Shown one piece after another: positions 47,224-50,401 of a stretch of DNA of 64,000 nucleotides (positions are counted from its first letter, which is position 1; the number at the start of each line of letters is the position of its first letter). The position numbers and the translations under genes were made by a program. The stretch is taken from NCBI GenBank assembly GCA_030637655.1, contig DAOWGI010000031.1, forward strand, positions 9,588 through 73,587. Direction: 5' to 3'. The notes under the pieces are model-generated. The model saw only the letters and a program-made list of their open reading frames with translations, was not told the origin of the DNA and did no database searches. Origin of the DNA: a candidate division FCPU426 bacterium (lineage in GTDB: Bacteria > Oederibacteriota > JAAXVQ01 > JAUVAV01).

Positions 47224-47974
47224 AACCTTTTTTGCTGTTCTGCTCCTTTCCGTACTGCTTGTCAATCCGGTACCCGGAGCAACTGCCGCGAAGGCGCCTC
47301 AGGTGCCGCGACCAGTCGGTTTTGTAAATGATTATGCCCAGGTGCTTAGTGAACCGGCTAAAGCGCAACTAAATGCTCTCTCAACCAGTCTGGCGCAAGC
47401 TACCGGCGCGCAGATGGTTTTTGTGATTATGCCCAGCATTGCTCCTTACGATGAATTTACCTATGGCCAGGCTATTTTTGATGCTTGGGGCATTGGTCAA
47501 AAAGGCAAGGATAATGGACTCTTGTTTTTAATTGCCATCAAAGAAAAGCGTCTTCGTATTCATACGGGGTACGGTGTAGAGGGAGTGTTGCCGGACGGCA
47601 AGTTGGGACGTTATCGGGATGAATACTTGCGGCCCTATTTAAAGAAAAACGAGATAGGCGCCGGCTTGGCCAACATTGGTCTGGTCTGTGCTCAGGATCT
47701 GGCCCAAGAGGCCGAGGTACAGTTGAATATCAACGGAACACCAAAGCGGTTTCCGCGCCAAAAAAGTCAGGGGACCCCCGGGCGCCTGATTATCATGATT
47801 GTTTTATTGGTGTTCCTCAGTGTGATTTCGAGACTAAACCGGCGTCGTCGTTCTGTGACCGGTGCCTATATTCCAGGGGGCTACTATCGCAGCGGTGGCG
47901 GTGGTTTTGGTGGCGGCTTCTCGGGTTTTGGCGGCGGTTTTTCCGGTGGCGGCGGCGTGGGTGGCGGCTGGTAA
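47183..47974 (+). CDS. TPM-domain protein with a Gly-rich tail (start uncertain)
   Basis: VNDYAQVL, WGIGQKGKDNGLL, TGYGVEGVLPD, GGGFSGGGG. Confidence 0.9.
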   Translation: MRLKNLQPLWTVCKTFFAVLLLSVLLVNPVPGATAAKAPQVPRPVGFVNDYAQVLSEPAKAQLNALSTSLAQATGAQMVFVIMPSIAPYDEFTYGQAIFDAWGIGQKGKDNGLLFLIAIKEKRLRIHTGYGVEGVLPDGKLGRYRDEYLRPYLKKNEIGAGLANIGLVCAQDLAQEAEVQLNINGTPKRFPRQKSQGTPGRLIIMIVLLVFLSVISRLNRRRRSVTGAYIPGGYYRSGGGGFGGGFSGFGGGFSGGGGVGGGW

Positions 47975-48103
47975 AGAAAATTAACCGCCGATGAACGCCG
48001 ATAAACGCGGATATTTATAGCTTAAGGGATAAAAAAGATTTTTAATTTGCGTATATCGGCGTGCATCGGCGGCTAAATTTGGTTCCGGCTGGTCCGGGTT
48101 AGG
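47973..48103 (-). repeat. 140-bp dispersed repeat copy
   Basis: Reverse complement of the 37731 copy. Confidence 0.85.
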
Positions 48104-48121
48104 AAAAAAATAGGAGGTGTT

Positions 48122-48715
48122 ATGGAAAAAACAGGATTGGCAGTACTTTCGATTGTGGGTGTTGTCCTGGCAGTGTTTTTGTTGGTCTTGCTGGGTGTGG
48201 TTTTTTATGTAATCGGAAGTTATAACAGTTTGGTCAAAATGGATGAGTCCGTAAAAACCGCATGGTCACAAGTCGAGAATCAATTGCAGCGGCGCAATGA
48301 CCTGATTCCCAATTTGGTTAATACGGTCAAAGGGTACGCCTCACATGAGAAGGGGATTTTTGAGAATGTGGCTGAAGCCCGGGCCAAGTTGGCCGGGGCT
48401 CAAAACCGGAATGAAAAAATTGCTGCGGCCGGTGAAATGTCAAGTGTACTGGGACGTTTGTTTGCCATTGTAGAAAATTATCCACAACTCAAAGCGGACA
48501 TGAATTTTCGGCAACTACAGGATGAATTGGCCGGTACAGAGAACCGGATTGCGGTTGAACGTATGCGGTACAATGAGACTGTGAAGCTTTTTAATCAGAG
48601 CATCCGCGTTTTTCCCAAGAATATCATTGCCGGTATGTTCGGTTTTGAAAAAGCCAATTTATTTGAGGCGGAAGAAGGAAGCAAAGAAGTGCCGAAGGTT
48701 GATTTTACACAGTAG
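48122..48715 (+). CDS. lemA: LemA family protein
   Basis: QLQRRNDLIPNLV..KGYA.HE, ENYPQLKA, TENRIAVER..YN. Confidence 0.95.
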   Translation: MEKTGLAVLSIVGVVLAVFLLVLLGVVFYVIGSYNSLVKMDESVKTAWSQVENQLQRRNDLIPNLVNTVKGYASHEKGIFENVAEARAKLAGAQNRNEKIAAAGEMSSVLGRLFAIVENYPQLKADMNFRQLQDELAGTENRIAVERMRYNETVKLFNQSIRVFPKNIIAGMFGFEKANLFEAEEGSKEVPKVDFTQ

Positions 48716-48731
48716 GGACGATTGGGGACGT

Positions 48732-48834
48732 GGGGACGTTGATCGGTAATACGGTTATCCAGAATCACTAATATTTATGAAGAAATCCAAAGAGTCAGCA
48801 AATAAAGATAACCGTATTACCGATCAACGTCCCC
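48732..48834. mobile_element. 103-bp MITE-like element, left copy
   Basis: Perfect 28-bp TIR GGGGACGTTGATCGGTAATACGGTTATC. Confidence 0.85.
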
Positions 48835-48840
48835 CGAGGT

Positions 48841-49234
48841 GGAGTAGTCCGGGCGGCCGCTCTTGTGAGGGCGCGATGACCGCGCCCCTACAGGGGAGGA
48901 AAGTCCGAGCTCCCAGGGCAGAGTGCTGGGTAACACCCAGTCGCGGTGACGTGAAGGAAAGTGCCACAGAAAATATACCGCCCTGCACCCTTGTGGTGCA
49001 GGGTAAGGGTGAAATGGTGAGGTAAGAGCTCACCGCGCTCCGGGTGACCGGAGTGGCAGGGCAAACCCCGCTTGGAGCAAGACCAAATAGGAGGGATGTG
49101 TCTGGCAACAGACACAAACCACGGCCCGTGGTTCCCTCGGGTTGGTCGCTTGAGGCGCAGCGTAAGTTGCGTCCCAGATAAATGGTCGCCATCTCTGGCA
49201 ACAGAGAGACAGAACTCGGCTTATGGACTACTCC
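48841..49234 (+). ncRNA. rnpB: RNase P RNA (type A)
   Basis: GAGGAAAGTCC and ACAGAACTCGGCTTA conserved boxes; P1 pairing GGAGTAGTCC/GGACTACTCC; GAAAGTGCCACAGAAA; GGCAAACCCC..GGAGCAAG. Confidence 0.97.
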
Positions 49235-49262
49235 TTAATTTTTTTTCGCTTTACGAATGATT

Positions 49263-49365
49263 GGGGACGTTGATCGGTAATACGGTTATCCAAAATCACT
49301 AATATTTATGAAAAAATCCAAAGAGTCAGCAAATAAAGATAACCGTATTACCGATCAACGTCCCC
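49263..49365. mobile_element. 103-bp MITE-like element, right copy
   Basis: Direct repeat of 48732-48834 with 2 substitutions. Confidence 0.85.
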
Positions 49366-49387
49366 CCGTTACTTTGAGGTGGTTCCG

Positions 49388-50401
49388 ATGATTATTGTCA
49401 TGAAACCAGGCGTGCCCATGCAGGAAATTCGTCAGATCATGGAGCGCATAAAGAAAATGAAGTTAGCGCCGCATCTGCTGCGTGGTACTGAGCGCAATGT
49501 CATTGCAGTGATTGGTGATGAACGGAATTTGCAGCGAGAGCCCTTGGAAGCGATTCCCGGGGTGGAAAATGTCATGTCCGTACTCAAGCCCTATAAGCTG
49601 GCCAGTCTGGAAGGGCATCAAGAAAGAACAGTAATCAGCACCGGAGGTTTTGTAATTGGCGAAAAAAAAATAGCTGTCATCGCCGGTCCCTGTACAGTTG
49701 AAAACCAAAAGATGTTGCTGCAAACAGCACGTCATATCCAACGTCAGGGGGCCTGCGGTTTGCGGGGCGGGGTTTTTAAGCCGCGTACCAGTCCTTATGC
49801 TTTTCAGGGTTTGAAAAATGCCGGATTAAAAGTACTTGCTCAAGTACGCAAGAGTTGCCGGATTCCGGTGGTTACCGAAGTGTTGGATCCCCGCGATGTG
49901 AAAGCGGTTGCCAAGTGTGCGGATATATTGCAAGTGGGCACGCGTAATATGCAGAATTATGAACTTTTGAAAGCAGTTGGCAAACAGAAAAAGCCGGTAC
50001 TTCTCAAGCGCGGTATGGCCGCAGGGGTTGATGATTTTCTAATGTCAGCTGAATACATTATGGCGCAAGGAAATTATAAAGTGATTTTATGTGAGCGTGG
50101 GATTCGCACGTTTAATGATTATGCCCGGAACACTTTGGATTTAACCATCATCCCCGCCTTAAAAGAGAGAACACACTTGCCGGTTATCGTGGATCCGTCA
50201 CATGGTACGGGTAAGAGAAAATATGTGATGCCCATGGCGAGGGCCGCGATTGCCGCCGGAGCGGATGGGCTGTTGATTGAGGTGCATCCGCATCCGGAGC
50301 GGGCCTGGGTAGATGGCCGGCAATCACTTTCTTTGCAAGAATTCACAGAATTGATGAGAGAAATACAGAGTATAGCCCATGCTATTGGCAGGACTTTATA
50401 A
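49388..50401 (+). CDS. aroF: DAHP synthase class I-beta with N-terminal regulatory domain
   Basis: IAGPC, KPRTSPY.FQG, GTRNMQN, CERGIRTF, DPSHGTG. Confidence 0.95.
   Translation: MIIVMKPGVPMQEIRQIMERIKKMKLAPHLLRGTERNVIAVIGDERNLQREPLEAIPGVENVMSVLKPYKLASLEGHQERTVISTGGFVIGEKKIAVIAGPCTVENQKMLLQTARHIQRQGACGLRGGVFKPRTSPYAFQGLKNAGLKVLAQVRKSCRIPVVTEVLDPRDVKAVAKCADILQVGTRNMQNYELLKAVGKQKKPVLLKRGMAAGVDDFLMSAEYIMAQGNYKVILCERGIRTFNDYARNTLDLTIIPALKERTHLPVIVDPSHGTGKRKYVMPMARAAIAAGADGLLIEVHPHPERAWVDGRQSLSLQEFTELMREIQSIAHAIGRTL

Follow-up and report, generated by a model that had tools for sequence, protein, structure and literature searches.

How does the only RNase P RNA gene of a bacterial genome come to lie tightly between two near-identical repeats that end in perfect terminal inverted repeats (TIRs)? 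The question is posed by positions 48732–49365 of a 64,000-nt stretch of DNA from a candidate division FCPU426 bacterium (the window; G000:C98:9588–73587, where G000 is a 3.28-Mb draft genome in 120 contigs with an estimated completeness of 91.5%). There, a class-A rnpB (48841–49238, plus strand) is preceded by one 103-bp element (48732–48834) and followed by another (49263–49365). An earlier, sequence-only reading took the two for miniature inverted-repeat transposable elements (MITEs), which would either form a composite-transposon-like unit around rnpB or act as processing sites for its RNA. We give a probability of about 0.78 to another answer: the elements are TIR dimers from a TIRtron that inserted separately around a resident rnpB, the left one first and the right one later as its sister copy.

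The bracketing itself is as originally described. A repeat search returned 105-nt direct repeats at 48731–48835 and 49262–49366 (98% identity), with 103-bp cores that differ at 2 positions (101/103 identical), and Rfam agrees on the gene between them (RF00010, 322.3 bits against a gathering score of 100, with the full model, 1–367, aligned). Each core has perfect 28-nt inverted arms, at 48732–48759 and 48807–48834 around a 47-nt spacer in the left element and at 49263–49290 and 49338–49365 in the right, and the 28-mer arm occurs four times in the window and not once in 100 shuffles. Between the left element and rnpB there are 6 nt; the right element begins 24 nt after the gene by the Rfam 3′ end, or 28 nt, the distance first given, when counted from the last P1 pair (49234), with a T8 run (49239–49246) immediately 3′ of the gene. 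RF00010 has a single match genome-wide, with no second rnpB, and the warning that recombination between the direct copies would delete rnpB concerns the genome's only copy. The stutter noticed ahead of the left copy is also real: GGACGATT then GGGGACGT occupy 48716–48731 on the plus strand, and GGGGACGT (48724–48731), with GGGACGATT just before it, repeats in tandem the 8 nt with which the left arm begins. A 13-nt tip duplication of similar kind lies ahead of a gene-bearing element on another contig (C82, below). Searched for as a repeat family, GGGACGATTG, which also lies ahead of the left element, gave 11 scattered occurrences and no family. Folded as single-stranded DNA (ssDNA), the left element is predicted to form a 28-bp hairpin at −32.9 kcal/mol (z −11.8) and the right one a 28-bp hairpin at −31.4 kcal/mol, with z of both about −11 to −12; RNA folds of the elements with short flanks give −53.5 and −58.6 kcal/mol, and a single arm alone shows no self-folding (−0.6 kcal/mol).

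The origin of the two elements is indicated by the rest of their family. We catalogued ten elements in 3.3 Mb, plus several solo or decayed tips: five type-A copies of 103 bp (the two at rnpB and those on C47, C39 and C25), two type-B copies of 116–117 bp on C40, one type-C copy of 167 bp on C33, a 5′-truncated remnant (C65:18913–19145, locus L009) and one gene-bearing element of 1.1 kb (C82:7561–8658). A 22-nt tip pattern finds 23 matches in G000 with no more than two mismatches, and most copies sit 7–16 nt past the end of a gene. The C82 element has the same ends as the dimers and encloses an open reading frame (ORF) of 339 amino acids; its own arms agree at 23/31 aligned terminal positions, the right tip being degraded. 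The ORF encodes an IS200-like Y1/HUH transposase (Y1_Tnp PF01797, 37.7 bits against a cut-off of 23) in which H60, H62 and Y119 (RYIHLNP) are invariant in 9/9 aligned homologues. Its best NCBIfam match is REP_Tyr_transpos (NF047646; 63.4 bits, under the cut-off of 80), and residues 257–319 match Bac_DnaA_C (E 1.8e-5; 25.1 bits, under the cut-off of 31.5), alongside weak DnaA NCBIfam matches. The 103-bp element is 87% identical to the C82 left end and leader over element positions 2–54, and a near-identical copy in another genus (G007:C21, L063) matches the C82 element at 82% over 71 nt. Because the element spacer, of about 43–47 nt, shares homology with the C82 transposase leader, we read the 103-bp dimers as internal-deletion derivatives of a C82-type element.

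Homologues of the C82 transposase are present in 11/11 family genomes at 41–58% identity, with 1–7 matches each, and most of 17 homologous loci have the gene enclosed by their best exact inverted repeat (which contains GGGAC in 7/17). Inside the G-rich tip, the arm consists of two tandem 8-mers, CGGTAATA CGGTTATC; read by eye, the arms of most relatives are built alike, from TTAGAATA twice, TCAACTTA twice or TTAACTAT twice, so that the 8-mer sequence varies by element. These tandem 8-mers may be the sites read by the helix–turn–helix (HTH) tail of the transposase. At the inner edge of one of the two arms (48753–48761 and 49284–49292), all six type-A copies compared, five in G000 and one in G007, read TTATCCA(G/A)A, which fits 8/9 of the DnaA-box consensus TT[AT]TNCACA as quoted in PMC6006769. 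This stretch is absent from the gene-bearing C82 copy and may be a coincidence despite the DnaA_C-like tail of the transposase. The same six copies, their flanks read by eye, show no consistent target-site duplication, with one copy having TTAACG on both sides. One flank tends to (G/A)AT(C/T) and the other to TAAC(G/T), but the copies are too few for a target motif to be called, and in 4/6 of them the spacer is flipped relative to flank polarity.

The 103-bp units are gene-less TIR dimers of a TIRtron (TIRYT class) and not classical MITEs; the class is known but little studied, a literature search for it having brought up just two papers. In the first, by Di Nocera, De Gregorio & Rocco (2013, PMC3733652), TIRtrons are RAYT-like tyrosine transposase genes with flanking terminal inverted repeats; many TIRYT tips fit GGGGWSAS, a consensus claimed there for part of the TIRs, and in some cases the repeats make up small families in which singles, dimers and groups occur. 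The classification given in part of Quentin et al. (2018, PMC6006769) places most TIRYTs in TnpA-REP subclass 2.1, with a subgroup 2.1.2 that has a Bac_DnaA_C-like tail. The G000 family resembles this class in that C82 is a Y1/HUH gene bounded by terminal inverted repeats and not by repetitive extragenic palindromes (REPs), and in the scattering of its repeats as single, dimeric and grouped copies in modest number. Two further likenesses are partial: its G-rich tip, GGGGACGT, fits 6/8 of GGGGWSAS (the tip of a different dimer in G007, GGGGACAT, fits 7/8), and the C-terminal HTH of the C82 protein, which would correspond to the tail of subgroup 2.1.2, matches Bac_DnaA_C below the cut-off. It differs from described TIRtrons in that its dimers can be traced, through the shared leader, to internal deletion of a gene-bearing element, in that one copy is apparently missing in some strains, and in that one 103-bp copy is 97–98% identical across two genera whose rnpB is 87% identical.

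Three other classes come close. REPIN–RAYT systems, as far as the relevant parts of Bertels & Rainey (2011, PMC3116915) describe them, share with the G000 elements the non-coding doublets of inverted units, about 100 bp in length and able to fold into a long hairpin, the single cognate HUH transposase gene with such units on both sides, intergenic positions near gene ends and arm changes matched in both arms; they differ in that the G000 arm is not palindromic and has no GTAG foot, its copy number is about ten and not hundreds, and the protein falls under the NCBI RAYT cut-off. With IS200/IS605 elements (IS608 and ISDra2), the shared features are Y1/HUH motifs, hairpin-forming ends and the lack of a consistent target duplication. 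The ends of IS200/IS605 elements are not inverted repeats of each other, unlike those of the G000 elements, which moreover show no GC-skew strand bias and whose six copies yield no fixed target tetranucleotide. Correia/NEMIS, RUP and ERIC are given as classical bacterial MITEs in PMC3733652. The G000 elements are like classical MITEs in size, 28-bp TIRs, gene-adjacent insertion, likely co-transcription and strong RNA hairpins with a possible effect on adjacent transcripts, and the original MITE label stands in the sense of small, non-coding, TIR-bearing mobile derivatives. It fails in the stricter sense: classical MITEs are DDE-derived and make target duplications, whereas the parent here encodes a Y1/HUH enzyme and the six copies show no consistent duplication, and a classical DDE-derived MITE was rejected. 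Among the best 12 of 32 literature matches for rnpB with MITE terms, none mentions miniature inverted-repeat elements. Reed and Altman in 1983 reportedly described repeats just 3′ of rnpB in E. coli, said to be tandem and on one side, with no transposase-linked hairpin dimers.

The gene, for its part, was there before the elements. The upstream neighbour of rnpB is lemA (48122–48715, plus strand, 197 amino acids; Pfam LemA PF04011, E 1.2e-63), and the downstream one is a gene for an aroF-type DAHP synthase (49388–50401, plus strand; DAHP_synth_1, E 7.6e-79, plus an FXD domain), with a ribosome-binding site, GAGGTG, at 49376–49381, 11 nt past the right element. Across the order, lemA lies upstream of rnpB on the same strand in 12/12 loci with upstream sequence, and a DAHP synthase gene lies downstream in 6/15 loci, the remainder having another gene or a contig end; the 103-bp element is absent from all order-level rnpB loci compared. 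Since relatives without the elements keep this gene order, rnpB did not arrive as cargo. The last aligned LemA codon and rnpB are 11–18 nt apart in the nearest genus, which has no element there; in G000 the gap is 128 nt and shrinks to 17 nt when the 103-bp element and the 8-nt stutter are subtracted. The sequence-only reading had argued that the left element leaves no room for an ordinary promoter. That argument lapses, because the element-free relatives are equally tight and the missing room predates the insertion; the lemA–rnpB spacer being too short, rnpB is probably transcribed throughout the family from within or upstream of lemA. RNA data touch the gene alone: in the sole metatranscriptome compared (run X11, contigs only), one contig matches rnpB exactly over 171 nt (49045–49215), and coverage (48884–49215) is uninformative on the elements and flanks, so X11 shows that the rnpB sequence is present as RNA and nothing more. 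The protein subunit of RNase P, rnpA, is encoded on C23.

Contigs from other sequencing runs indicate that the two elements apparently inserted as separate events. In run X4, from a different study, one contig leads from lemA into the left arm without the 8-nt stutter (gap at 48723), and a second contig of similar depth joins the 3′ end of rnpB (49234) to 49372, skipping 137 nt (49235–49371); by our own arithmetic, this 198-nt record holds about 42 unaligned letters between the joined sides. In run X1, a contig joins 49249 to 49372, and the 122 nt skipped comprise the right element with 13 nt to its left and 6 nt to its right. In view of their short sides and the possible intervening letters, we take these contigs for strains or alleles that lack the right element and not for exact empty sites.

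The two copies are also each other's closest kin. They share two derived spacer positions relative to the other four type-A copies, which makes them sisters, and the left copy alone carries two more changes. The sequence-only reading had allowed that an abundant element might flank rnpB on both sides by chance. The count disfavours this: with ten elements placed randomly in 3,000 intergenic slots, at least one adjacent pair arises with P = 0.029 and at least two pairs with P = 0.0004, and because the family is small, double flanking is not an effect of abundance. There is a second sister pair, the type-B copies on C40 (C40:11627–12277, locus L010), which are in direct orientation, differ by three substitutions and one indel, and bracket a HIT-family gene of 117 amino acids, 12 nt past its stop and 52 nt before its start. 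The order of the HIT gene after an upstream gene of 596 amino acids is kept in 9/10 relatives, so the HIT gene, too, is a resident, and a second sister pair around a resident gene suggests short-range re-insertion. Start to start, the type-B copies are 534 bp apart and the copies at rnpB 531 bp, a nearly equal period. Solo tips in direct, same-orientation pairs 483 and 566 bp apart occur in G002 and G007; they were rejected as instances of the same structure, and in G002 the tip is part of a longer direct repeat around an ORF of 106 amino acids.

A course of events that would produce this arrangement is the following. Each 103-bp unit consists of a left repeat, about 43–47 nt of transposase leader and a right repeat, and is predicted to fold, whether as single-stranded DNA or as RNA, into a hairpin of 28 bp. 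The left unit would have inserted first, into the short lemA–rnpB spacer, and a sister copy later into the rnpB–aroF spacer. The transposase would act in trans on the hairpin-forming ssDNA ends in the manner of IS200/IS605, without target duplication, and re-insertion within a few hundred bases would leave direct sister pairs around short genes; action on ssDNA near the donor site would fit an HUH enzyme. The elements may persist because few sites take an insertion without harm and the spacers immediately beyond gene ends belong to these; rnpB would presumably be expressed as it is in the relatives, its promoter lying within lemA or upstream of it.

Several points weigh against this account. 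In the parts of PMC3733652 and PMC6006769 that deal with TIRYTs, none is reported as having been shown experimentally to move DNA. The C82 copy, with its decayed right tip, may be inactive, and both its Bac_DnaA_C and its REP_Tyr_transpos matches fall below curated cut-offs. Spacers are oriented '+' in four copies and '−' in two, five of the six lying on contigs of positive GC skew and one (C25) where skew is near zero; no rule links spacer orientation to skew, and a replication-strand bias of the IS608 type is not seen in these six copies. The skipping contigs have a short side of 30 letters, so that other letters may lie between the joined sides, and they may come from diverged strains. The contigs that cross into the repeats do so by 29 nt only. 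Local re-insertion, finally, is drawn from two pairs only.

Among the other explanations, the plainest is that a metagenome assembler misplaced one copy, as might happen in a draft of 120 contigs. The check used assembled Logan contigs, X1 being possibly the source sample. Contigs of X1 (48400–48760, 48806–48982 and 49209–49291) and X2 (48400–48760 and 49165–49291) run from unique flank into the terminal repeat by 29 nt with 0 differences at 3/4 junctions. No listed contig reaches the fourth junction (49365/49366) or spans a whole element, and 29 letters, as far as a 31-mer graph goes before a repeat, fall short of the 31-letter threshold for bridging, since contigs built from k-mers end within repeats; the check on misassembly is to that extent partial. 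Yet three junctions agree with the assembly up to the repeat tip in two runs, the two copies differ at two positions and share two private ones, and the X4 contig of a different study likewise links lemA to the left arm, all of which makes an artefact very improbable. A composite mobile cassette, its outer ends used jointly and rnpB (or the HIT gene) moved or imported as cargo, would account for two direct sister pairs of almost equal period, each around a single short gene. This successor to the composite-transposon proposal is at odds with the ancestral neighbourhoods of both genes (for rnpB, lemA in all 12 loci and aroF in six, none with elements), with the single copy of rnpB and with the apparent existence of strains that have the left element alone, in whose contigs the right one is skipped; a cassette origin of the rnpB locus is largely refuted, and we regard it as next to negligible.

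Two further explanations give the hairpins a function. In the first, RNase III would cut the 28-bp stems of a lemA–rnpB–aroF read-through RNA, or the stems would block exonucleases; in this way the hairpins would free P RNA or shield it and would insulate the mRNAs on either side, a role compatible with a transposon origin. The duplexes are perfect over 28 bp, and because neither is followed by a U-run they are not like intrinsic terminators; G000 encodes RNase III (232 bits, above the cut-off), an enzyme that cuts Correia elements. The minimum-energy fold of 48700–49400 joins the two outer arms to each other and likewise the two inner ones, the latter in a predicted 28-bp stem that would enclose rnpB. 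A GC-rich hairpin found downstream of rnpB in several relatives is absent at the same place in G000; G007 has a 79-bp TIR dimer 4 nt past rnpB, where two sister genomes have the GC-rich hairpin, and retains only the 3′ tail of that hairpin. Against this, local hairpins should form ahead of the long-range inner-arm pairing, the right element is missing in the strain contigs and the same elements adjoin unrelated genes elsewhere in G000; as element-free relatives share the tight arrangement, hairpins are not needed to make P RNA. Co-option is unlikely, if the most tenable of these alternatives, and the hairpin facts fit equally well with insertion into or beside hairpin-forming DNA. Somewhat less likely still would be the fuller version in which the dimers were recruited as RNA-processing or insulating signals and their stems, or an inner-arm stem resembling an rRNA processing stalk, replace the native 3′ hairpin. 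If true, it would mean that hairpins of HUH transposons are recurrently domesticated at rnpB, independently with a different TIR dimer in another genus, and that direct sister pairs around short genes are selected units, not by-products of local hopping. Alternatively, the leader-derived spacer could carry an outward promoter, the left copy driving rnpB and the right copy aroF: both spacers are oriented as the C82 leader, towards rnpB and aroF, and that leader can be read by eye as TTGAAA-16/17-TAAAAAT. In the dimers, however, TTGAAA is replaced by ATGAAA and the −10-like part falls outside, past the deletion junction; the C39 copy points away from the adjacent downstream gene; and a consensus scan of 47900–49700 found no sigma-70-like site on the plus strand and one on the minus strand, fewer than in shuffles, with the proviso that the lineage consensus may differ. 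Promoter donation therefore seems quite improbable. In a predicted RNA fold of 49246–49385, the right stem extends, and CGCUUUA (49247–49253) pairs with UGAGGUG of the aroF ribosome-binding region; an extended stem of this kind could lower aroF translation.

Beyond G000, the tip pattern occurs in 5/15 genomes of the order (23 matches in G000, 8 in G002, 6 in G007, 2 in G001 and 1 in G003) and in 0/4 genomes of a second family. The type-A copy in G007 (L063:1500–1602, on C21) differs from the C39 copy of G000 at two positions in 103 bp, whereas rnpB of the two genomes is 87% identical and the DNA around the G007 copy matches G000 at 85% or not at all. This suggests either that the element recently moved between genera or that it is under unusually strong constraint. 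JGI metagenome contigs gave no match to either the 3′ end of rnpB (27 nt) or the repeat tip (26 nt); a scan of genome contigs with the repeat tip gave one locus, L118, in a set from which records close to the window genome may have been left out. The 79-bp dimer beside rnpB in G007 (L025:1851–1929; G007:C8:39025–39103), with 29-bp arms, the tip GGGGACAT and tandem TTAACTAT 8-mers, is unrelated to the 103-bp element; it replaces most of the GC-rich hairpin and is present as one full and one solo copy.

Repeats also lie inside rnpB. A REP-type palindrome, GTGAGGGCGCG-ATGAC-CGCGCCCCTAC (48865–48891, plus strand), forms an extended P3 stem-loop that is an insertion relative to 7/8 aligned relatives, which have a short P3, and to the Rfam model; 23-nt matches to it at 91–96% occur on C71, C118, C64 and C10, and its foot, CGCCCCTAC, occurs 218 times in the genome. 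In G002 (L028, G002:C3:106926–106954), P3 carries a different GTAG REP, GTAGATACG...CGTATCTAC, with a sister copy about 70 nt upstream of rnpB, and the P3 region of G003 includes 24 nt that are found again on four other contigs. Literature searches on RNase P RNA, REPs and helix P3 found no paper on REPs inside RNase P RNA and none that links REPs with P3, one paper on REPs mentioning RNase P RNA only in passing, and a search pairing palindromic elements, rnpB and Rickettsia found no match. In 5/13 listed loci of order-level relatives, rnpB lies at or across a contig end (G003, G008, G012, G013 and G014; L032, L033 and L035–L037), which points to repeats within or next to the gene as a frequent cause of broken assemblies in this clade.

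Elsewhere in G000, the truncated C65 copy lies 27 nt ahead of a group II intron domain (RF01999, 58.8 bits); no other structured RNA gene was found beside the remaining copies. On C104 (39790–40065), related tips lie about 255 bp from each other as an inverted pair whose inner arm, GGGACGTTGTTTnGTTGTCCAGTTG, is a different one, and on C30 (56712–57987) solo tips in the same orientation, three in total, bracket two tandem paralogous small genes of 119 and 133 amino acids.

The case is neat but fairly ordinary, and nothing in it changes what is known of RNase P. For annotation, it teaches that MITE-like hairpin repeats without target duplications should be compared with HUH transposase genes. 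For the TIRYT/TIRtron class, the locus is natural evidence of recent activity, in the form of a traceable deletion derivative, apparent presence and absence among strains, a near-identical copy in another genus and two sister pairs that suggest short-range re-insertion. For the organism, it is a locus encoding an essential ribozyme that tolerates two hairpin dimers, at 6 and 24 nt from the gene, plus a REP inside P3.

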